Virus record (IMG/VR): IMGVR_UViG_3300035501_000922
Direction: 5' to 3' (one strand)
DNA length: 64,000 bases
From: a virus
Taxonomy: Duplodnaviria > Caudoviricetes
The notes beneath the pieces are model-generated. The model did no database searches. It saw only the letters and a program-made list of their open reading frames with translations, and was not told the origin of the DNA. Positions 12,517-25,190 of the stretch are shown in pieces (position 1 is the first letter of the stretch; every line of letters begins with the position of its first letter). The position numbers were made by a program, and so were the translations under genes.

Positions 12517-12550
12517 ATCCGTAAAGTCAACTTTTTCAATTATATATTAT
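12517..12550 (+). promoter_or_regulatory. Extended early-type promoter ATCCGTAAAGTCAACTTTTTCAATTATATATTAT
   Basis: 31/34 identical to the minus-strand copy at 57729-57762; ends in the TATATATTAT core. Confidence 0.7.
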
Positions 12551-12652
12551 TTTTGTGTAATCGGATAAGAATTTATTATTCGATATAATAAATTGAATGG
12601 GTTACGAATTACCTAGTCACAAAATTCGCAGAGTACGAAGGAGGTACTTATT

Positions 12653-13206: not shown

Positions 13207-13473
13207 ATGAACTATTATTTTTGTTTACTCTCGGCTGAAGAAGCCAAGGATCCTACAAAATATGGATATAATTTTGCATTAACTAAAGAATCAGATTGGA
13301 TTCAATCTAATGATGCAGAGAACTATCTTACAGGTGTTATTAAAGGCGTTGATTTCTTCATTAAAGATGGTATCACGTATTCATTTCATAAACGTTTCCT
13401 TGACCTTGATAATAAGAGAATTGTTGTTCTTGCACTCGAAAGTACTTCAGGTTGTGACGTTAAGAAATTTTAA
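13207..13473 (+). CDS. Hypothetical protein
   Basis: 88 aa, AAAGGAG RBS. Confidence 0.6.
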   Translation: MNYYFCLLSAEEAKDPTKYGYNFALTKESDWIQSNDAENYLTGVIKGVDFFIKDGITYSFHKRFLDLDNKRIVVLALESTSGCDVKKF

Positions 13474-13495
13474 TATATATTTTCAACATAAGAAT

Positions 13496-13599
13496 AAGCT
13501 TAAGTTGAATGGAAAATCTGATTTAAGTTAGAGCTTATAAAACACCTCATGAGAATAAAGAATGATGGATACTAAGAAATTCTTAGTATCCATCATTTT
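13496..13599 (+). ncRNA. Candidate small RNA A (late-type promoter to terminator, no ORF)
   Basis: AACA-N6-TA at 13485-13496; terminator 13561-13599; 5' ~44 nt complementary to 23601-23642. Confidence 0.4.
13561..13599. terminator. Bidirectional terminator hairpin
   Basis: AATGATGGATACTAAGAA / TTCTTAGTATCCATCATT. Confidence 0.8.
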
Positions 13600-14903
13600 T
13601 AATTATTGTATGCTTGTATTGCAAGAATAAAGTAGAAGTATAATGCTTTTTTATAACATACACGACTTGCTTCTCTTTTGTATTTACTATGTATACCTAT
13701 TTCTTCAGACCACTTCTCTAAAGAATCTTTAATATTTTTTATATTAGCATCATTAGCATTCGTCTTTCTAAAAGTTGCTTCTGACCAGTGTAAAAAGTAT
13801 TTAGAATTTATATCTTCAGGTTTTTTATTTTCATCATATAGATATAGGAACAACACAGATTCAATAAACTTTTGAATATCATCTGAATATTTATCAGTAA
13901 TAACCTTGGTTATATAAAACCTAACTTCGGAAACACTAACATTACTAATCTTAGCTACTATAGATACAAACTTAAGATTTATATCTTGAGTAAGTAGTTT
14001 TAAAGTTATCTTTCTTCCTATATATTCTACAGTAGATGTTTTATTCTGTGAATCAACGTCTAACTGCATACCATCATAAGAATCTTTAGATAAAGTAACT
14101 CTAAGTCCTTTAGCATGATTACTCATATACTGGTCACAGATTTTTTTAATCATTGACTTTTGGTCATTTCTTATTCTTTGTATAAAACGAATTATTTCTT
14201 TATCAGAAGCATCATTTATAAATGGTTTTAAAAAGTCATATGAATGCTGAATAGAAAGAAATAATGCTCCAAAGATATGACCTTGTTGTTTAATCATAAA
14301 TTTATCAGTTAAATTATCAATGGTATATTGCATAACAGCTTCATCCGTACCGTATTTAAAAAATAAACTAAATACTGCAGGATAGTTAGAAAGAGCATAA
14401 ATTGCTAATGCGGTATTGATACCTTTCTGGTCTTTCTTTAATGTGTAAAATCTAATACAGCAATAGAATACCCAGAAAATGGGGTTACCTGTTAATAAGT
14501 TAAATTCACTCTTAGTTCCAAGTTGATTTACTACCTTCTTTATATTTTCATCAAGAAGAGAAATTTTAATCTTTTTATCTTTTGCTCCACCCGTAAGTGT
14601 ATATTCAAACCCGAATAACTCACAGTACTTAGCTTTCTCATCAGATGAAAATGGGATTAAATATACAGGACCTGTAGTATGAAGTTTATCACTATTTACA
14701 TCCATATAGTGTCCTACAAGTTGTTTAAACTTCCTATCACCTTGCGGTGTACTAAGTGTTTTTTCAATTATTGGATAAATATTCTCTATAATAATATGTG
14801 AATCAGTTGTGGCTTCTGTTATATAATCACGTAAATCTAACAGTTCACATTCTTGTTCTTTTTCATACATCTTTACTAAATAACTCATAAGAACGTATCT
14901 CAC
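13599..14903 (-). CDS. Hypothetical protein, probably virion-associated
   Basis: 434 aa; late-type promoter at 14921-14932; acidic N-terminus ending in an ITE-A-like protease site. Confidence 0.55.
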   Translation of the reverse strand: MRYVLMSYLVKMYEKEQECELLDLRDYITEATTDSHIIIENIYPIIEKTLSTPQGDRKFKQLVGHYMDVNSDKLHTTGPVYLIPFSSDEKAKYCELFGFEYTLTGGAKDKKIKISLLDENIKKVVNQLGTKSEFNLLTGNPIFWVFYCCIRFYTLKKDQKGINTALAIYALSNYPAVFSLFFKYGTDEAVMQYTIDNLTDKFMIKQQGHIFGALFLSIQHSYDFLKPFINDASDKEIIRFIQRIRNDQKSMIKKICDQYMSNHAKGLRVTLSKDSYDGMQLDVDSQNKTSTVEYIGRKITLKLLTQDINLKFVSIVAKISNVSVSEVRFYITKVITDKYSDDIQKFIESVLFLYLYDENKKPEDINSKYFLHWSEATFRKTNANDANIKNIKDSLEKWSEEIGIHSKYKREASRVCYKKALYFYFILAIQAYNN

Positions 14904-14983
14904 CTTTCTTATATAATAATTAAGTATTTGTTTTTTACTGGTTTTATTACAGTATAATAAAACATATGAAAGGAGTTAGTAAT

Positions 14984-15211
14984 ATGCTTAAAAAAATTAT
15001 TGAGATTATAGATTTTTTATCATTGATTTCTTTTCTAATAGGAATGGGTATTGCGTTTTATTATACTTTTAAGTATTTTATGGTTATACGTATTATTGCA
15101 ATAATAAACTACCCTATAAATCTGGTAGTGAAACCATTAATACCTTTAAGTATATCAATAATATTATCAATTATTAGTTTTAAACTAAAGAAAATAAATA
15201 AGAAGAGCTAG
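14984..15211 (+). CDS. Small two-TM membrane protein
   Basis: AAGGAG RBS, two hydrophobic segments. Confidence 0.55.
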   Translation: MLKKIIEIIDFLSLISFLIGMGIAFYYTFKYFMVIRIIAIINYPINLVVKPLIPLSISIILSIISFKLKKINKKS

Positions 15212-15238
15212 TTTATCTATCTCTTCTTATTTTTTAAT

Positions 15239-15248
15239 TATATATTAT
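15239..15248 (+). promoter_or_regulatory. Early-type promoter TATATATTAT
   Basis: Recurrent motif just after a terminator and upstream of a gene. Confidence 0.6.
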
Positions 15249-15297
15249 TTAGATGTAATAAGACAAGGAAAGTCTATAAAACCAGAAAGGAAAAGCC

Positions 15298-15759
15298 ATG
15301 AATATAATGGATGAGTTAGAAGTAATTGTAGCAAAGGTTCAAGAAGAAGACGGTGTATCGAAGGCTGCGGCTGCTCGTAAAGTTAGAAAAGCTGCAGAAG
15401 CATTTTCTCACATTGAGAATATGAATGAGAGACTGCGTAAAATTGAAAGACAGAGTGCTGAAGACCCTGTACTTGCATTTTTAAACAGTATTGAAACTGA
15501 GGACGGATTCTATGCTAGTATCAGTGTAGAAGACTATGAAAAACTGCTTGTTATAGTCGAGAAAACGGGTCACTCGATACACTACCCTAAGGGAAATTAT
15601 CGTAGTGGTGGTACTGCAGGTACCAGAGGTTCTGAGCACGAAGGGCTTGATAACGGTCGGGTGTATTTTACAAATCGAAGATTTGAAACTACCCATAAAG
15701 GGCACATGTATACATATTATCCTGAGCTTAAAAAATGGGATAGATATGGAAACAAATAA
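15298..15759 (+). CDS. Hypothetical (putative early) protein
   Basis: 153 aa, AAAGGA RBS. Confidence 0.6.
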   Translation: MNIMDELEVIVAKVQEEDGVSKAAAARKVRKAAEAFSHIENMNERLRKIERQSAEDPVLAFLNSIETEDGFYASISVEDYEKLLVIVEKTGHSIHYPKGNYRSGGTAGTRGSEHEGLDNGRVYFTNRRFETTHKGHMYTYYPELKKWDRYGNK

Positions 15760-15785
15760 TAAAAATTATAAAGGAGTATAAAAGC

Positions 15786-16664
15786 ATGAATAACAATGTT
15801 AAAGAGACAAATGAAGCAGAAGTAAGGGTGAACGAAATCAAGAATCTCTATGATACTTTAGATAAAAAGTACGAGGTACTATTGAGTATTATCGGAATCA
15901 CCACAGACAATGAGAAGCTGGATAGGCTTCGTCAGATGTACTTATTACAGTTACAATATGGACTGTATATCAATAACAAAGATATTGAATATGCTATTAC
16001 AGAAAAAATCGTTAAACCCTATGAAAAGGATAAGACGGTTGATTTAGAGGCATATGAAGATCTGCATGGTCAACTTACGTACTGGAATGAAGAGTTAGAT
16101 CGAAATTTATCAACAGCACAATATTATGCAAGAACTATAGAAGAATTTGATAGCTATTGCGAAGATGATAAAATATATATAATATTAGACCCTTCAACAG
16201 AACACGTATCTCGATCTTACTTTACTGAATCGAGTTTTATTTGTGAAAACGTGGGTCATGGAGGAAGATTCAATCCGTTGACAGTTCCATTACTTCCCAT
16301 AGACCCAGTGATGATTGAAGATGTTGAATTCAACTCTGGAAACTTAATACCCTATTTAACTAGATTCTATACTAACTATATAATAGGACAACTGACTGTA
16401 GACGGTGGTTTATGGATTCATGAACCGATGCTAACACCTCTATACAAATTTATCGTAAACTGGGTTCTGAAGACTTATATAGATAATGAGGATGATTCAT
16501 ATCATCAGTTTTTACTTGAGAAGTATGTATCATATTTATCTACAAGTGAATATAGGGACGAAGACTATGAGTTTATCAAGAAGTGGTTTACTGATAATGG
16601 ATATAAGAGTTTTGCCGATGAGATAGGGCAAGAACTCAATAAATTAAACAGTGATAACGAGTAA
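15786..16664 (+). CDS. Hypothetical (putative early) protein
   Basis: 292 aa, AAGGAG RBS. Confidence 0.6.
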   Translation: MNNNVKETNEAEVRVNEIKNLYDTLDKKYEVLLSIIGITTDNEKLDRLRQMYLLQLQYGLYINNKDIEYAITEKIVKPYEKDKTVDLEAYEDLHGQLTYWNEELDRNLSTAQYYARTIEEFDSYCEDDKIYIILDPSTEHVSRSYFTESSFICENVGHGGRFNPLTVPLLPIDPVMIEDVEFNSGNLIPYLTRFYTNYIIGQLTVDGGLWIHEPMLTPLYKFIVNWVLKTYIDNEDDSYHQFLLEKYVSYLSTSEYRDEDYEFIKKWFTDNGYKSFADEIGQELNKLNSDNE

Positions 16665-16705
16665 TAAAAAGGTAGGTATACGTTTGTATACCTACCTTTA
16701 TTTTT

Positions 16706-19700
16706 TTATAATAACATGTCATCGACATTAATTTGTTGTGTATGTACAGTAGCATCATGGAATTTTTTCATTCCAAGACGTTTAGTAGTTTCTGCAGGTT
16801 TGGAACATAATAATCCAATATTCCTCTTACCAAGTTTGTAATAGAAATCACCTGCACATTTATTGCAAAGATGTTTTTCTTTTCCAACTCCTATACAATA
16901 CATAGGACTTCTTAGTTTTACAACCTTACCAGCATATTTAGTTATTACATCGGGAGTTAAACAAATAAGTTTACCCTTTTCTATAATATATCTATATAAG
17001 AAATCGTCATATCCTTTATTAGGAATTGTTATAGATAGATATCCAGTTGTGCCACAATCAGAACCTTCATCAGCTAATGTTTCAGATTGCATTGCTGAAA
17101 TAAGTTCTTTAGATAAGTAACCGGATACTTGTGTACCGTAATATTATTCATATAGGTTAGTTACTCCTATATCTGTTTATACAGCTATATGTCTCCATAT
17201 AGATTGGACTATATCTTACTTATATATTCTATTACCAAATATATAAGCCCATGCACTTCCACTCTACTTAGAGTGTACTCTACTCACTTACTCACTTAGA
17301 TATTTCTTCTAAGCTATGTTTTCGATAGTCTCTGAACGTTCTTCCATAAAGAAGCTTCGCTGCGGATTGTCTCTATTCTTAACATTATTACTATACCTTG
17401 GACGTTACTCCTTGCCACTATTATATTACTATCTTAGTTTAGTAGTTAAGACTTTTTAAATTAAAGTTATAGTTATTAACTTTAATTTATGAGATATTCC
17501 CGCAATTCACATGGTCAGACAGCCGGGTTACACGTGACTGCCTTCGGATAGGCACCGGATAAGATGGCATTTGAATGTGGAGCTATATCTTTTTTCTCAA
17601 GACCATCAAGTAATGATGCCGTCAGAACATCAAACTCACCGGTCATATTATTTTTAATAGCACCTCTCATTAAGTACATATTCTTATAGTTATTACCAAT
17701 AGAACCACGAGCACCTGAAACGTATAAGTCCATACCTATATCGTCTTTAAGAACTTCTTTTGTTTTTGCAACAAGTTCTTTCTCCATTTGTTCTGATGCT
17801 TTAGGGTCATTATTGGCTAACTCATCTTTATATTTTACTAAAAGTTCTTTCTTAAGTTTTTTTACTTCAGGAGGAACTTTTAAAACTTTTGCAGTAAATG
17901 ATGTTGTTATAACTGAGTGAAGCTGTAATCCTAACCAGTCTCTCATATCAACATACTTATACATTTGCTCAACAGTCATTTTATCTTCATATAATGCTTT
18001 TGCTACAGTTTTTTCTACTTTACCAAATCCACCATCATCTAATACATAATTTACATATCCGATAATCTCCTGTAAGCCAATTTCTTCAACCATTAATCTA
18101 TTAAAAATAAATCGACCAAGAGTTGTTTTAGTTGGCTCTTTAACTAGAGGATATTCGGATGGTGTTAAAGTGAGTATATCAGTGGGATGGTGCTTAGCAG
18201 TTACCGCTTTAGTTGGTTTATTCTTTTCATCTTTTGACATATCTACAAGATTACCAAACCAATCAACTAACATTGAGAAAGTTATTTCTTCAGGTTTTAA
18301 AGATAAGAAATACTGTTTATCTTGAGAAGATAAAACTTTAGCATTAGGTTTAGGTTCTTTTGTAAGAGTATAAAAAGTCTGAATTACTTCGTTTTCTACC
18401 TTACGAATATTCTTACCTGATGCATTTATAAAATATGATTTTGAATTCATTGCTTTACGACATTCTTCATTTGCTTCCTGTGTAAATACAATTTTTACTG
18501 TTGTCTGATCTCCATCATAGTCACCGTCTAATCCTGGAAGATATGAGTTACTAAATTGAACTGAATCAATAAACTTAGTAGCCATCTTTGTGGGTGGAAC
18601 GGAAAAATCAATATGAGGATAGTTTTCATATACTTTACCGTTAAATGATACAACTTCAGTTTCTGTTGTTGAAGTAACCCTAATTTCAGCTAAGAAGATT
18701 CCAAATTCATCAAGCAGAGGATAACGAGTTACTAAACAGAATTTATCTTTGGTTACATCAACAGCAGCCATATATAAAAGGTCTGTCCATGTCATATATC
18801 TAGAAGCAATTGAAGAAATTTCAGAACGATTAGTTGGGTCTATACGTTTACCTGTAAAACCTAAATAGAACTTCCTATCAGAACCAACTACAGGAATTTC
18901 AATTTTATTGAAACGTGATTCTGGGTCTTTTACGTATGTATCAATCATTTTCTTAAAATACTTTTCAGTAAAATAAGATTCAGGGTCTGCTAGTCGTAAA
19001 TTATCTTTAGCAGTATCAGATACTGGATTATAAAGAATTTTAGATAGCTGAGAATCTATAACTTCTCTTTCAAAGAAAGTTCTAACCCAATGCATAATGA
19101 ATGGATAACATAAACTACAAATTTGAGAAATAGGTAAAGCTGCATGACGAAAATCTGTTACCATTTGGTCAGGTCTATCAGCATGGAAAGTCGGTGCTGT
19201 AATGACCGTTCTTGTACAATAGTCTACGTTTCGTCCTAAGAGATACTTACGAAGTAATCCCTGCTTTTTCTCAAGCTTTGTTTTAAAATAATCGTATATT
19301 TCAACCAGAGTATTCTGAATATTATAATTAGTGGCACTAAACTGAAAATCAAACATATCTCTATCTTTTATTAATCCAGCATTGCGAATTAATCTACTAT
19401 ACAATTGGTTTATACTTCCGGTTTCACCACTACCACTCTTAGAATAAGTTACATCACGATAAAACGCTGGAATAACTAAGCAGTAATGAATAAAAATTTC
19501 ATTCTTCTTAGTTTTTGTAATAAGGTCAATACGCTCATTACGCATTCCTGTTTCGTCAGCATATTCCCACTTAATCTTTTCCCAGTTATTATAGATAAAT
19601 TCTAGTCCAGTCTCACCGTTTTCATCAGGAACTAACTTTCCAGTTTTATCAATAGAGTAATACTCTTCACCATTGACAATCTTCTCGATGTTACGATAAA

Positions 19701-19923
19701 GACGTTTAAGAACTTTATATATATGAGGATGAATAAAATACGAATGAAGATCAATATATGCAAAAGTTTCTTTTCTTGATTTAGTAGTTATTCCAAATAT
19801 TTCATTTGATATTAAGCCATTTGGATGGGGTATTCCACCTCTTTGAAATAGAATACCTGAAGTGACTTCTTGAAGATGGTTTAATTCAATAAACTCTTTA
19901 ATATCAAATAAATCTATTTTCAT
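16706..19923 (-). CDS. Phage RNA polymerase beta' subunit (virion RNAP-like), spliced (exons 19923-17537 and 17138-16706, 939 aa)
   Basis: GRNVDYCTRTVI, TRYP, catalytic DGDYDGD, SGARG; splicing gives bridge-helix AYPKAVGTQVSGYLSK, then DCGT, LRSPMYC, CNKCAG, MKKFH; late-type promoter at 19946-19957. Confidence 0.88.
17139..17536 (-). ncRNA. Group I intron (IA-like, no ORF) in RNAP beta', apparent 3'-terminal A
   Basis: P AATTGCGGGAA, Q AATCCGCAGC, R TCAGAGACTA, S AAGATATAGTCC; P1 AGGCAGU/GCUGUCU; 3' boundary inferred from frame, P10 and P9.0. Confidence 0.88.
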
Positions 19924-20024
19924 AAAATACCACTCCTTTCTTCATTAAAAGAATGTTTTTTGGCACATATTCTAGACAATAAAAAAATGAGTAGACAGAA
20001 TCATATTCTAGTCTACTCATATTA

Positions 20025-20696
20025 CTAATCATCTGTTGTTTCACTTTGTGCTTTTTTGCTACGTGTAGTTTTTTTCTTTTGGGGTTTCGGGGGTTCATGA
20101 GGTAATTTTCTCAGTTCTTCCATTAAATTTGCTATAAATGAGTCACCATTTTCTTGAAGGTAACGTTCATATCTGCGTTCAACTGCTTGTAGTACATATA
20201 CCTCAATATATCCCCGATATATCGCATTATAGTATTCAATTGTTATAAAAGAACAATTGCTTTCCTTGTCAGATTCAATCATCATAATAACATTGTCTCT
20301 GACAGCGTCAATCTTTAAATCGATTTGATCATTCTTTGATTCATAGCTTTCGAGTCTTTTAGACAATGCCCTATCATTTTCTTCGCTTGTTTGACGTATT
20401 TCCTGGACCGAGGATGAGACAGACTCAATTTTATTATTCAGTTCTGAAATATCTGAACGAATTTCGTCTTTCATATTTTTCACATCATCAGCTAAATTGA
20501 GCATTTGCGTTCTAAACTCAGCATCAGTTTCATCTGTCTGTGTTTTCTTAACAATCTCTAAATCGTGTTCTTCAATTTTTTTTCTTAACTTTTTATAACA
20601 CACAAGTATTGCACCGCCACAAACACAAATAACCGATACTGCTATTCCGAGTCCAGGAAGGATTGAATTTAAAAAGTTAACAAATGTACTTTCCAT
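20025..20696 (-). CDS. Membrane-anchored coiled-coil protein (holin-like)
   Basis: N-terminal TM helix, coiled coil, C-terminal YERYLQENGDSFI..LMEEL motif; late-type promoter at 20739-20750. Confidence 0.45.
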   Translation of the reverse strand: MESTFVNFLNSILPGLGIAVSVICVCGGAILVCYKKLRKKIEEHDLEIVKKTQTDETDAEFRTQMLNLADDVKNMKDEIRSDISELNNKIESVSSSVQEIRQTSEENDRALSKRLESYESKNDQIDLKIDAVRDNVIMMIESDKESNCSFITIEYYNAIYRGYIEVYVLQAVERRYERYLQENGDSFIANLMEELRKLPHEPPKPQKKKTTRSKKAQSETTDD

Positions 20697-20773
20697 AGTG
20701 GTTTAACCCCTTTCTCATTAAAAAAAAGATAATAGTATTATTAAATTGTTTTTAAGAGCTATAACAAATACAT

Positions 20774-20856
20774 AAGAATTTTAGGTAATTTTCAACATTT
20801 TTGTCCTTCGTTTTAAAAATAGGATGCATTGACATAACTCAATGCATCCTATTTTT
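20774..20856 (+). ncRNA. Candidate small RNA C (late-type promoter to terminator)
   Basis: AACA-N6-TA at 20763-20774; terminator ~20816-20856; no ORF; pyrimidine-rich 5' part. Confidence 0.25.
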
Positions 20857-23488
20857 AATTTCTTTCAACATGAATAAAATTAGCTAATTCATATTTATGG
20901 TCTTTTTCATCATGGGAAAAATCTAAGTCAATAATATCAACTGGATATGATGAAAACATATCATTGTGAGTAATTAGAAAACTCTGTTCAGAGCCAATTC
21001 TCTCAATCTGGTTTTCAAGTATCTTAATAAACTTCTCTCTATTTTTTGTATCAAGTGGTCCATCTATTTCATCCAATAACATGATGTTATATTTGGATAA
21101 TGTTTGTGACGCAAGTCCAAATGACAATGCAATAGATAAAAAGCTGATTTCACCTTGAGATGCATACTTTACATCTCTAATTAATTTTCCTCTATTATAA
21201 AAAGGAATAGTAAATTCAGTTGGTGTGATTTTAAAGTTATCTATATAGATTTGACCATCATATGCTATGTCTAATAATTCATTTGTTATTTCTTCAGTAT
21301 TTCCAAGATAGCTTTTGATATAATAAAGAGACATACCTTTTTTAGATGATAAAGCTTCTTTTGTTAGTGTCATCTCATCAAATTTAACATAATAATTTTC
21401 AAGCTCTTTGTTTATCATATCATATTGAGTTAGTTTTGATGACAGCTCAGTAATCTTTTGATTAAGATTATCTATGGTCATTTTTGATTTATGAATTTCT
21501 AACTCTGTATTTTTAATAAGTTCACGATTTCGTCTGTATAACTCATACTCATCACTTAAAGTCTCAACTTCTTTTTCTATCTTATCATGAAGTTCAAATG
21601 TTTCCTTAAGCTCAGTATATGTTTCAAGACTATTTTCATATTCTTTATTTTTTTCAGTTAATGATGAAATTAACATCTTGAGTGATGATATCTTAGATTG
21701 GAACTCTTCAATTTGTTCTTTAGTATTTTCTATCTGCTCAGTTAAATATGACATATTTGAAATTCTTGAATATCTTTCAATATCCTTTTCAATAAAACTA
21801 CTGTTATCTTTAAGAGTAAGATAGTCATTATATTCTGTTACTAATGACATTAAATAGTTCATATCTTTTTCGTTATAAATTCTTTGCAGATTACCTATTG
21901 CATCATAAAGAGTATTAACAGAAAAAGAATTCTTTATATTATCAGGTAGTTTTTCGATTAATGATTTATATGGTGCAAAAGATAAAAGAACATCTCTTAT
22001 ATTCTTATATGCATATTCCATGTCTTTATAAAAAGAAAGGTCTTTCTTCTTTTCTTTTTCAACCTGATTAGTTTCTAGCAGATTTCCTACTTGTTTCCAT
22101 AATTGTCTAGCTTCACAGGTATCATTTGTACAACCATTAAAAACTGATGAAGATGAGAAATCAAAACGTTGGGAAACTGTTCTTAAAAATAACATTTGTG
22201 TATCTTCGCTTTCATCCATATTCATAATGTGTGTATTGATATACTGCATAGCATTACGATTTTCTTTTAATAAAGATATAATTTTCTTTATGGGTGATTT
22301 GCCAAATTCATAAGTTTTATCTAAAATCTGCTGTGTATTTTTTATAAAAACATAGAAATCATCAAATTCTGATTTAGTATAATCAGGGCTAAATCCACCA
22401 AGATTATCTTCAGCTTCACCAATCTTAACCGATAGCTTCCTGTGTTCTTCAAGCATATCATGAAGTTCTTTTTCACTTTTCTCTTCTTTATCATATTGGA
22501 CTTCAAAACTTCGTAATTGTTCTTGAAGCTGATTTAACATAGTTAAATGATTCTGAATAAGTATCTCAGATGATTCAATCTGAGTCTGTGCTTGGATGGA
22601 TAGCTTTTCTAGCTCTTGTATTTTTTCAGCGTAATACTCACTATCTGTAGATTCTAGCGACTCAGTATTTTCTAGTATCTTATTCATCTTATTCAGTTTC
22701 TTAACCGATGTTGAAAGTCTTTCTTTAAGAGTATCACAGTTCTCGATTTTAGAGATTTCAAATTCATATACTGAAATCAGTTTAGATAATTCACTATACT
22801 GCTCTTGCTGAAACTCTCTTTCAGATTCTAATAAATTAAGTTCATGAGTCACATCTTTTCTTTCAGTAATTCCTAATCTCTTGAGCTTATCTATATCATG
22901 AGAAATCATCTCTTTTAACTGATGTAGGTCATTATTTACTTTTTTATAGTAAGTTAAAAATATACCAATCTCATCAAGTAATTTACTCATGAATGTTTTT
23001 CTTTCAGTTTCTGATAAATCTATCATAGACGTTACATTACTGCCAATTCTAATAAGTTTCAAGTAATCAGGTTCTATACCCAATTCCTCTTTAATATATT
23101 CCTTGAACGACGTGACATTACCATTTACATTCAATTCATTATCATTTTTCATAATGTATGATTTAACACTATGGTTCTTATCTTTATGAGGAGTATAAAA
23201 ATGCTTAATGATATAATAATCATTATCATTTCGTATATGTATTTCTTTATATCCATCTTTATTTTCTAGTATCAGGTTTAAATTATCTCTCACATCGAGA
23301 TTTCCTAATCCTGCAAATGGATTTAATAAACTTAACAAACTGGTTTTGCCCGACCCGTTAGGTCCTATAAGCAAACATATTTTATTCATAGCTGTAGTAA
23401 AGTCAATTGTAATTTCATGAGAATTCATTGCATTACTTACAGCTGCAAAATTTCTTAGAATAATCTTTTCTATTTTCATTTTTATCAA
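20855..23488 (-). CDS. SbcC/Rad50-like SMC ATPase (T4 gp46-like recombination nuclease subunit)
   Basis: GPNGSGKT Walker A, long coiled coil with central C-x4-C, ASQGE signature, LLDEIDGPLD, LITH. Confidence 0.9.
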   Translation of the reverse strand: MIKMKIEKIILRNFAAVSNAMNSHEITIDFTTAMNKICLLIGPNGSGKTSLLSLLNPFAGLGNLDVRDNLNLILENKDGYKEIHIRNDNDYYIIKHFYTPHKDKNHSVKSYIMKNDNELNVNGNVTSFKEYIKEELGIEPDYLKLIRIGSNVTSMIDLSETERKTFMSKLLDEIGIFLTYYKKVNNDLHQLKEMISHDIDKLKRLGITERKDVTHELNLLESEREFQQEQYSELSKLISVYEFEISKIENCDTLKERLSTSVKKLNKMNKILENTESLESTDSEYYAEKIQELEKLSIQAQTQIESSEILIQNHLTMLNQLQEQLRSFEVQYDKEEKSEKELHDMLEEHRKLSVKIGEAEDNLGGFSPDYTKSEFDDFYVFIKNTQQILDKTYEFGKSPIKKIISLLKENRNAMQYINTHIMNMDESEDTQMLFLRTVSQRFDFSSSSVFNGCTNDTCEARQLWKQVGNLLETNQVEKEKKKDLSFYKDMEYAYKNIRDVLLSFAPYKSLIEKLPDNIKNSFSVNTLYDAIGNLQRIYNEKDMNYLMSLVTEYNDYLTLKDNSSFIEKDIERYSRISNMSYLTEQIENTKEQIEEFQSKISSLKMLISSLTEKNKEYENSLETYTELKETFELHDKIEKEVETLSDEYELYRRNRELIKNTELEIHKSKMTIDNLNQKITELSSKLTQYDMINKELENYYVKFDEMTLTKEALSSKKGMSLYYIKSYLGNTEEITNELLDIAYDGQIYIDNFKITPTEFTIPFYNRGKLIRDVKYASQGEISFLSIALSFGLASQTLSKYNIMLLDEIDGPLDTKNREKFIKILENQIERIGSEQSFLITHNDMFSSYPVDIIDLDFSHDEKDHKYELANFIHVERN

Positions 23489-23539
23489 AACCTTTCTTGA
23501 GGGTTATTTTTACGTTATTACAAATATAAACATATAGAT

Positions 23540-23866
23540 AACTATTCAATGAACGTAAACAATAAAAACTCCAAGTATAATGCTAGATTTCGCACTTGAA
23601 TTATAAGCTTAACTTAACAGATTTCCATTCTAGCTTTTGCTTGTTTACATAAATTAGCGTTTTTCATAACAATTCATATTACGCTTTTTACGCTTTGCTT
23701 TTTATTCAATGCCTGCCCTGAGAATAATTTTCGTCGTTAAATGCTATTTTAGCATCCTCCTAATCAACAAACAAATTTACAAAACGAATTGTTATGATTT
23801 TTCTATTAAGGCGTACCTCCGAATGAAATGTGCATATACCATTTTGGTATATGCACATTTCTTTTT
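23540..23866 (+). ncRNA. Candidate ~325-nt non-coding RNA B
   Basis: AACA-N6-TA at 23529-23540; terminator 23825-23862; only tiny ORFs; internal inverted repeat CATAACAATTC/GAATTGTTATG; segment complementary to candidate RNA A. Confidence 0.4.
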
Positions 23867-25190
23867 ATTTCAAGTTATAAATTGATTTAACCATATCATT
23901 TATGTACTCTACATTTACACATACAAGAATTCTATATGTATAAAATGGTGATTTATTATTAAAGTATATTGTCATTGTATTATAGTCAATTTTATAATCA
24001 GTACCCTCATGTATTAATTCACCTTGTCTACGAACTTTTATATCTAAAAATTCCAGTAATGGTAAGCCGTTATCAAGATGGTACTTAATATTTGCTCTAA
24101 TAGAATTATTAAGTAATTCATCAATGCAGATTGAATCGAATTCTTTTTCAAGTCTACATGATGCTTTGTTAAATAAATGCCAACCCGGACGTAGATTCAA
24201 ATCATCACGTGTTAAAACATCTGTAAATACAGGTATAACTTTACTTGATTCAGCATCAATCTTAGGAAGATTTAAATCATAGATATTATCAGAAAATACA
24301 TAATAAAAACCAGTACTGTAGAACTCAAGTTTTATTGAAAATGTAACTTGATATTGGTTCATTATATGCCCAACTTTTTCACCATCATCCCAGTTTAAAT
24401 CTGTAAATGTAGTATCAATATGTGTTGGATAATATCTATAAAACTCCCTAGTTCCTGTACTTCCCTGTAGTTTATATGTAACAGGTGTTTGGCAATTCTG
24501 CTCTAAATACTGTAGAAATTCTCTTGTGGAGTTTTCCTTATCAAATAAAGGTTTACCGGTAATATCTGATATAATCTTCAGCATTTCTTGCGGAATATAA
24601 CTTTCAAGGAATGTAGGAACAAACTTTGAGCTATTCCACGGAAGTGCATTTTGTAAGTAATGGACGTAATCAATCTGGTTCATTAATGTAGCAAATATCA
24701 TTATAACATCAACGTACATTACTGAACGATTCTGTTGATACTTAATCATTAAATCATTTTGAGGGTCTTCAAAAAATGGTTGTAAATTAGTTGTACCCCA
24801 TGTATTATAAATATCATATTGTCTTTCAATAAGTGAAGTTCCTTTTAAAAATCTATCTTCATCCATACCTGCAATTCTTGGACGAAAAATAATCATCGGT
24901 TTACTTTTCTTCAAAAACTCATGGTCAGTACTTCTAATCTGTCTATGTGCAATCTTTGAATTAACATGAACCGTTTTAAAAAGGTCATCAGGCATTAAGT
25001 CCAAAACATACTTTTGTATCCATGCTAATACGTTGCCATATGTATGTGACATACTTGTCATCATTGTAACATACCTTTTATCTTTTTGCTTTCTATTTTG
25101 AATAGTAGATGCATCTACCATTTGTGAATATTTTTTAGCACGTTCTTTTTCTAATTGGTCTCTTTGGTATCTATACATATAATTATTCAC
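23865..25190 (-). CDS. Hypothetical protein, probably virion structural
   Basis: 441 aa; GAGGTG RBS; late-type promoter at 25207-25218. Confidence 0.55.
   Translation of the reverse strand: MNNYMYRYQRDQLEKERAKKYSQMVDASTIQNRKQKDKRYVTMMTSMSHTYGNVLAWIQKYVLDLMPDDLFKTVHVNSKIAHRQIRSTDHEFLKKSKPMIIFRPRIAGMDEDRFLKGTSLIERQYDIYNTWGTTNLQPFFEDPQNDLMIKYQQNRSVMYVDVIMIFATLMNQIDYVHYLQNALPWNSSKFVPTFLESYIPQEMLKIISDITGKPLFDKENSTREFLQYLEQNCQTPVTYKLQGSTGTREFYRYYPTHIDTTFTDLNWDDGEKVGHIMNQYQVTFSIKLEFYSTGFYYVFSDNIYDLNLPKIDAESSKVIPVFTDVLTRDDLNLRPGWHLFNKASCRLEKEFDSICIDELLNNSIRANIKYHLDNGLPLLEFLDIKVRRQGELIHEGTDYKIDYNTMTIYFNNKSPFYTYRILVCVNVEYINDMVKSIYNLK

Follow-up and report, generated by a model that had tools for sequence, protein, structure and literature searches.

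The DNA analyzed here, called the window, is a 64,000-nucleotide (nt) stretch of an 85.7-kb virus record (IMG/VR record IMGVR_UViG_3300035501_000922; 32% G+C), and it contains two intergenic units, A and B, that are partly complementary to each other and are considered here as candidate genes for a pair of small RNAs. The source is an uncultivated gut or rumen relative of Bacillus phage AR9, a phage that encodes multisubunit RNA polymerases of its own. Unit A lies between an 88-amino acid (aa) open reading frame (ORF; 13207–13473, +) and a convergent 434-aa ORF (13599–14903, −). Unit B lies in an intergenic gap of 376 nt; both flanking genes, a 441-aa ORF (23865–25190) and an sbcC-like gene (likely ATG at 23479), are on the minus strand, opposite to B. 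The features assigned to the two units are as follows:

13485..13496, +: unit A promoter, with the AR9-type late consensus AACA-N6-TA and predicted +1 at 13496
13496..13540, +: complementary 5′ segment of predicted RNA A, from alignment and RNAduplex
13496..13605, +: predicted RNA A, ~105–110 nt, comprising the pairing segment, a short unconserved linker, and the terminator
13558..13600, strand not assigned: terminator hairpin between the convergent genes, scored on both strands, with the better T-run on +
23529..23540, +: unit B promoter AACA-N6-TA, antisense to the sbcC-like and 441-aa genes, with predicted +1 at 23540
23540..23866, +: predicted RNA B, ~325 nt here and 135–440 nt in relatives
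23572..23643, +: closing hairpin of RNA B, with an outer helix (23572–23577 with 23638–23643) and an inner helix (23582–23587 with 23629–23634)
23601..23642, +: segment of predicted RNA B complementary to RNA A, formed by the loop's 3′ part together with the 3′ arms of the hairpin
23825..23861, +: unit B terminator, scored on the + strand only

A sequence-only reading of this DNA had placed promoter words and terminators in both units and claimed that the start of A pairs with B through a core of 30 Watson–Crick pairs and three small bulges. The promoter words and terminator-like hairpins were found at the positions given above, and the core was exactly as claimed. In a local alignment, 13496–13540 and the reverse complement of 23601–23642 shared 38 of 46 columns, with runs of 6, 7, 8, and 9 Watson–Crick positions separated by bulges of 1, 2, and 1 nt. 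When the A intergenic stretch was scored against both strands of the 85.7-kb record, B scored 50 and the runner-up 30, with a mean over tiles of 19.9 (SD 3.1). The comparison with shuffled sequence that had been proposed as a check gave a z score of −6.6 for the window pair (RNAduplex, −42.7 kcal/mol, dinucleotide shuffles). A gapped pattern of the motif matched exactly twice in the window, with none expected (no match in 100 shuffles). Across IMG/VR, the pattern was found in six stretches on four contigs, all from this clade, and the two contigs among them that span both loci had exactly two matches apiece. The A/B match was not reported by blastn-short of either intergenic region against the record, owing to its gaps, and a repeat search of the record likewise returned no such match.

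Homologous A and B loci of relatives were retrieved via the neighboring proteins. An A unit follows the 88-aa gene homolog in lineages 1 (the window), 2, 3, 5, 6, 7, 9, 10, and 11, and a B unit lies upstream of the sbcC-like gene in lineages 1, 2, 3, 4, 5, 6, 8, 9, and 11. The paired set comprised the seven lineages with both units (1, 2, 3, 5, 6, 9, and 11), lineage 7 being left out as represented by short contigs only. The pairing segment has diverged almost beyond recognition between lineages, and A and B are alike within each genome, at ~80–85% identity with indels everywhere and no lineage with near-identical copies. The 5′ part of each predicted RNA A was paired with each predicted RNA B in a 7 × 7 RNAduplex matrix, and the cognate values (z scores relative to dinucleotide shuffles) were:

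Lineage 1: cognate ΔG −42.7 kcal/mol, z −6.6
Lineage 2: cognate ΔG −40.5 kcal/mol, z −8.4 (measured on variant 2b, ΔG −42.3)
Lineage 3: cognate ΔG −31.3 kcal/mol, z −3.8
Lineage 5: cognate ΔG −28.6 kcal/mol, z −3.9
Lineage 6: cognate ΔG −46.8 kcal/mol, z −6.2
Lineage 11: cognate ΔG −31.4 kcal/mol, z −4.2
Lineage 9: cognate ΔG −17.4 kcal/mol, z −0.4

Non-cognate pairs over the whole matrix ranged from −12 to −34 kcal/mol, and the cognate assignment had the lowest energy sum of all 5040 permutations (rank 1). Cognate pairing was far better than non-cognate pairing in six of the seven lineages, and these six span 62–72% protein identity of the neighboring gene. A lack of conserved complementarity in relatives had been set beforehand as one outcome that would refute the pairing; the complementarity survived in these six lineages despite the divergence of the sequence, and its specificity for the cognate partner is read directly from the matrix. 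The earlier claim that pairing runs up to the predicted +1 of A was also borne out: in all six, the first paired base of predicted RNA A is nucleotide 1 or 2, and DNA similarity upstream of this point fades (by eye). Cofolding of full-length RNA A with 5′ RNA B in five lineages favored the heterodimer by 12–24 kcal/mol over the separately folded RNAs. Across lineages, RNA A is predicted to be ~75–125 nt long and to consist of a single-stranded or weakly folded 5′ segment, a linker, and a terminator.

The late promoters of AR9, used by its non-virion RNA polymerase (RNAP), have the consensus AACA-N6-TA/G (PMC5312081, PMC5449584), in which AACA and the +1 purine are essential (PMC5449584). The record contains 31 intergenic AACA-N6-T(A/G) sites, and since most of them precede a same-strand ORF (by 15–93 nt), the word behaves like the AR9 late promoter. 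AACA at −11 to −8 and TA at −1/+1 are present in every A and B unit aligned. Nine A units from six lineages (1, 2, 3, 5, 6, and 7) were aligned with a mean column identity of 58% (58–60% across the A and B alignments); outside the terminator, the invariant columns were AACA and T-A-A at −1/+1/+2, and the N6 varied. Invariant promoter columns in a unit that drifts this fast are the signature of a promoter under selection. The same AACA-N6-TA word is borne by the A units of lineages 9, 10, and 11. All nine B lineages have AACA-N6-TAA with an A-rich upstream part, antisense to the sbcC-like gene and with six forms of N6, and both word and upstream part were invariant in an eight-unit B alignment. 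The late-promoter words are the main invariant feature of the nine A and eight B units and keep the orientation that pairing between A and B needs, and the post-stem T-runs on the B(+) side equaled or exceeded those on the opposite side in all eight B units measured.

The segment of B that is complementary to A corresponds to the 3′ half of the large loop and the 3′ arms of the B hairpin. In minimum free energy folds, this hairpin is closed by two helices of differing sequence in lineages 1, 2, 3, 6, and 8: an outer helix of CAAG-type with CUUG-type arms and an inner helix of 6–10 bp. The inner arms differ by lineage and include GCUAGA/UCUAGC, a 9-bp ACGUUAGA-type helix, UUAGGAU/AUCCUAA, and GUGUGGU/ACCACAC. 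Lineages 4, 5, and 11 have a single long closing helix of 13–16 bp instead. RNAalifold recovered the outer helix, with double changes in four of seven pairs. Because loop lengths differ, MAFFT misaligned the inner arms and the combination of MAFFT and RNAalifold gave the outer helix alone, so the inner helix derives from single-sequence folds only.

No conserved ORF was found in either unit; short ORFs vary between lineages in presence, length, and sequence (by eye). The absence of a credible ORF had been asserted in the sequence-only reading, and although two ORFs of at least 40 aa touch the units, neither is conserved in relatives: one (13310–13531) lies out of frame inside the 88-aa gene and is the only such ORF at A, and the other (23709–23885) crosses the terminator of B. 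A 16-codon ORF just past the predicted +1 of RNA B (23540–23600, +) has no counterpart in other lineages. Neither unit contains a conserved small (hydrophobic) ORF of the kind that defines type I toxin–antitoxin systems (by eye), and Rfam 15 gave nothing at A or B at the gathering score or at E values up to 5, save chance matches on a terminator hairpin. The suggestions that the pair is antitoxin-like or a guide/scaffold duplex therefore found no backing, in that neither a conserved small ORF nor an Rfam match was present (a nuclease partner was not sought).

The reading that we favor, with a chance of being right that we regard as about even, takes A as a trans-encoded antisense or sponge RNA whose target is a structured RNA B and whose 5′ end would invade the B hairpin. 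A and B would be two small non-coding RNA genes, both probably late and both transcribed from AACA-N6-TA promoters by the phage non-virion RNAP. RNA B would be the older and more widespread partner, a structured RNA with a 5′ hairpin in which covarying closing helices surround a large loop; from its first nucleotide on, RNA A would be able to pair with the loop's 3′ half and with the 3′ arm. The duplex would begin at the loop and extend into the arm, so that the hairpin opens and RNA B is remodeled or inactivated, or a ~45-bp bulged duplex is exposed to RNase III. Both plus strands are presumably transcribed, and RNA A and RNA B would have to meet. As our leading guess, RNA B controls the neighboring sbcC-like gene, or mRNAs through two CCUCC tracts in its 3′ extension. 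The sRNA/sponge suggestion of the sequence-only reading is partly supported, by the conserved cognate complementarity and the promoter orientation, and runs into difficulty in lineage 9, which has both units without complementarity.

The strands proposed for the two RNAs follow mainly from the promoter words and the orientation of the terminators, and not from wobble pairs. Perfect Watson–Crick pairs are equal for both strand choices, so only G·U vs. A·C can discriminate between them. The advantage of the proposed pair (A sense with B antisense to sbcC) over the opposite strands was:

Lineage 1: 3.8 kcal/mol
Lineage 2: 7.0 kcal/mol
Lineage 3: −0.6 kcal/mol
Lineage 5: 5.2 kcal/mol
Lineage 6: 14.7 kcal/mol
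Lineage 11: −3.2 kcal/mol

A number of results weigh against the favored reading. Four lineages prefer the proposed strands and two disfavor them, and a hand-calculated sign-flip test of the six values gave p ~0.08. Among the transition differences between A and B, eight are compatible and three incompatible with the proposed strands, a weak strand test. Five lineages (1, 2, 4, 5, and 8) have the stabler B hairpin on the B(+) strand and three (3, 6, and 11) on the opposite one, and the G·U pairs of the hairpin make no consistent strand choice. The promoter word is short, so that ~20 intergenic sites are expected by chance (a hand estimate from base composition) against the 31 seen, and both terminators are common to neighboring genes. 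Lineage 9 has both units and intact promoter words without complementarity (ΔG −17.4 kcal/mol, z −0.4, alignment score at background). Finally, at least four lineages (loci L028, L047, L051, and L053) have no A in its usual position, and in one of these, L028 (lineage 8), B is present without A, which implies that any A–B circuit is dispensable.

In lineage 9 (L048 11267–11360 and 1121–1428), RNA A is predicted to fold into a hairpin of its own and the B hairpin to be filled by nested helices; the A slot of this lineage may have been retargeted. At the loci lacking A, a terminator only (35–41 nt in three of them) lies between the 434-aa homolog and the convergent gene:

L028 11285–11400
L047 11294–11331
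L051 11288–11328
L053 10757–10791

The convergent partner is the 88-aa gene in L047, L051, and L053. A second copy of the B motif was not found in the 21 kb of sequence available for L028. These comparisons suggest that unit A was either lost or never gained in the lineages concerned. Because lineage 8 has B without A, and A is missing from its slot in three more, B is the more widespread element and A the accessory one.

The main alternative, which we consider unlikely, is that the motif has the same sense at A and at B. At B, it would then belong to a structured RNA, intergenic or leader, made on the sbcC-like strand either by read-through from the 441-aa gene or from an AACAAGC word, and A would be a free copy of its hairpin loop that serves as a decoy or mimic instead of pairing directly with a stand-alone RNA B; the factor common to both would be a protein or the antisense RNA B. 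The B hairpin can form on either strand and, in lineages 3, 6, and 11, is stabler on the sbcC-like one. An AACA word stands just upstream of the motif on the sbcC strand in five of six lineages inspected, a poor T-run on that strand in the terminator after the 441-aa gene makes read-through plausible, and a single factor that both A and B must fit would produce their co-variation equally well. In AR9, however, the +1 purine matters; the upstream AACA word places C or T at that predicted position in lineages 2 and 3, and lineage 5 lacks the word. The invariant antisense AACA-N6-TAA of all nine B lineages and the (+)-oriented terminator would be left unexplained, and the register between AACA and the motif differs between A and B.

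The two units share a strand and lie 10–12 kb apart in lineages 1, 5, and 6, which makes the motif copies inverted; lineages 2 and 3 have the units on opposite strands, 26–43 kb apart, with the copies as direct repeats. The flanking genes and the local promoter orientation are kept at each copy in both arrangements. The IMG/VR contigs of L002/L009 and L005/L008, compared with the window, G001, and the L037/L041 contig, differ by a large rearrangement that inverts and relocates the segment carrying the 434-aa gene, the A–B distance being 26–43 kb vs. 10–12 kb. The possibility that the repeats bound an inversion or an invertible or mobile segment was rejected, the flanks being the same in the inverted and the direct arrangement. 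The 434-aa and 441-aa neighbors are not recombinases, and their interpretation as paralogs from a duplicated module was also rejected, as they are mutually unrelated.

We regard it as quite unlikely that the motif is a DNA element without RNA–RNA contact, either a pair of sites for one DNA-binding protein (an operator or roadblock after two late promoters) or a repeat maintained by gene conversion. A double-stranded site works either way round, there are only two copies per genome, the motif pattern is confined to contigs of this clade, and the G·U asymmetry expected of an RNA duplex is not significant, all of which would suit such an element. Yet the shared blocks differ by lineage, and their spacing differs by 1–4 nt between A and B of one genome; such variable spacing, seen as bulges, is easier to reconcile with an RNA duplex than with a rigid protein site. 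Recent conversion should leave near-identical copies, and instead identity is ~80–85% with indels. The similarity also ends at the predicted 5′ end of RNA A, and the copies are not recombination end points, the same flanks occurring in inverted and direct genomes. The diverged DNA repeat that had been offered as the alternative to RNA pairing is weakened by the duplex-like spacing and the boundary at +1, and is kept at low weight. A functionless relic of an old duplication is highly improbable. In its favor, the similarity is gone from lineage 9, loss of A has had no obvious consequence in several lineages, and the region is AT-rich and of low complexity, but A units have diverged beyond recognition outside the promoter word while A and B of one genome are alike in six lineages, a match that neutral drift would have erased and a coordinated change that a relic cannot explain.

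RNA B is necessarily antisense to any read-through transcript that enters the sbcC-like gene. Additional features of its surroundings and of its 3′ extension are:

23504..23516, −: AAC(G/T/C)-N6-TAA word ~25–40 nt before the sbcC-like start, conserved in all lineages as invariant alignment columns
23756–23760 and 23816–23820, +: two CCUCC (anti-Shine–Dalgarno-like) tracts in the RNA B 3′ extension, predicted unpaired with probabilities of 0.98 and 0.83

The first of these, on the sbcC strand and 13 bases from the B promoter word, may be the promoter of the sbcC-like gene itself, back-to-back with that of B. It lacks the A at −8 that AR9 requires, and a variant promoter class is possible. One or two CCUCC tracts, often as UCCUCCGA, occur in every long-form B (lineages 1, 2, 4, 5, 6, 9, and 11; in relatives, loci L001/L002, L004, L021, L041, L048, and L052) and are predicted to be unpaired in lineages 1 and 6; short-form B (L005 and L028) has none. 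These tracts recall the C-rich loops of Firmicute sRNAs. A small sense-strand ORF behind the complementary GGAGG words was considered and dropped, as it was not conserved when read by eye.

The favored antisense reading can be carried further, to a version that we hold to be doubtful and of low probability, in which A and B together work as a self-contained RNA timer or switch. The phage, a virulent jumbo phage, would transcribe both entirely with its own polymerase; RNA B would be the regulator and RNA A its trans-encoded antidote. RNA B, next to sbcC, would be an anti-Shine–Dalgarno repressor of phage or host mRNAs, or alternatively an RNA II-like primer or an R-loop RNA of a replication or recombination site. 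Invasion of its hairpin by the A 5′ end would make the A:B ratio set the time at which B is active. Cumulative GC skew tracked gene orientation and gave no hint of an origin near B.

Regulatory RNAs of plasmids and temperate phages offer partial parallels. ColE1 RNA I/RNA II and R1 CopA/CopT are cis-encoded on opposite strands of one locus. They resemble the proposed pair in that pairing starts in a hairpin loop, spreads, and refolds the target, but A and B are 10–43 kb apart and imperfectly complementary. The c4 RNA of P1/P7 acts on ant mRNA and the CI RNA of P4 on seqA/seqC, in each case with origin and target in the same operon and a role in temperate immunity. There, as proposed here, a phage RNA pairs with complementary sites elsewhere in its own genome; unlike A and B, these RNAs are processed from and act on one operon and serve temperate-phage immunity. 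None of the Rfam antisense families matches A or B.

AR9 itself is the closest comparison for transcription, with the same promoter word, including the invariant AACA and the +1 purine, in AT-rich jumbo phages that have split multisubunit RNAP genes and a group I intron. Seven AR9 late promoters drive antisense RNAs (PMC5312081), but those reported are cis to genes, and no trans-complementary pair has been described. At the AR9 locus of the 434-aa homolog there is neither a convergent neighbor nor an A-like unit, and the published AR9 transcriptome is therefore not usable here. A similar logic of titration or remodeling, with a short RNA complementary to a functional stem–loop of a larger regulatory RNA, is found in the prophage anti-sRNAs AgvB and AsxR (EHEC) and in SprY, which acts on a stem–loop of RNAIII (Staphylococcus aureus), as cited in a review (PMC12197685). 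Those RNAs have host sRNA targets and belong to lysogeny, whereas here both partners are phage genes behind late promoters of a phage polymerase. The terms "jumbo," "phiKZ," "lytic phage," and "virulent phage" are absent from the text of this 2025 review of phage small RNAs (PMC12197685).

The gene content of the record includes split multisubunit RNAP subunits (PHROG beta-subunit families), an SbcC-like ATPase, and a guanylate kinase, and the source is probably a virulent jumbo phage. Megablast against phage records gave no match, and the named relatives are all distant, with 20–27% protein identity to Bacillus phages AR9 and PBS1, Yersinia phage phiR1-37, and Staphylococcus S6-like jumbo phages. 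Nearer relatives (47–81% protein identity) are uncultivated contigs only, from rumen, gut, and similar samples, and several are 200–290 kb long. Elsewhere in the window, a 38-nt repeat in two copies (12531–12569 and 15229–15267, +) carries the AR9 early-promoter word ATTATATATTAT followed six bases on by G, and by this match to the AR9 early consensus (PMC5312081) the copies are probably early promoters of the virion RNAP. A group I intron (Rfam RF00028, 63.5 bits; 17185–17625, −) splits an RNAP beta-subunit-like gene (PHROG name; 16706–19923, −), with ORFs 17515–19923 and 16706–17092 (−) as exons that match the same PHROG families in register. In relatives, candidate anti-defense genes, from precomputed Pfam matches, lie a few kilobases from the 434-aa gene homolog:

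PF26125, AcrVA2-like: L037 7936–8979; L050 7073–8203
PF25189, Tad8: L047 6411–6710; L051 7844–8140

Base-pairing RNAs are familiar post-transcriptional regulators in bacteria and temperate phages, their use by virulent phages is almost unexplored, and no report of such control was found for jumbo phages with their own RNAPs. The relationship between A and B points to a phage-internal RNA–RNA control circuit that is undescribed for such phages and is here predicted from sequence. If the favored reading is correct, A and B would be phage small RNAs that are conserved and co-evolve as a pair, a concrete example of RNA–RNA regulation within the late program of these phages, and B would define a new structured RNA beside sbcCD-type nuclease genes; if the timer version holds, the pair would represent a new class of phage-internal RNA–RNA regulation. 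The pairing segment, which drifts fast and yet stays complementary, provides a natural data set for the evolution of RNA–RNA interfaces.

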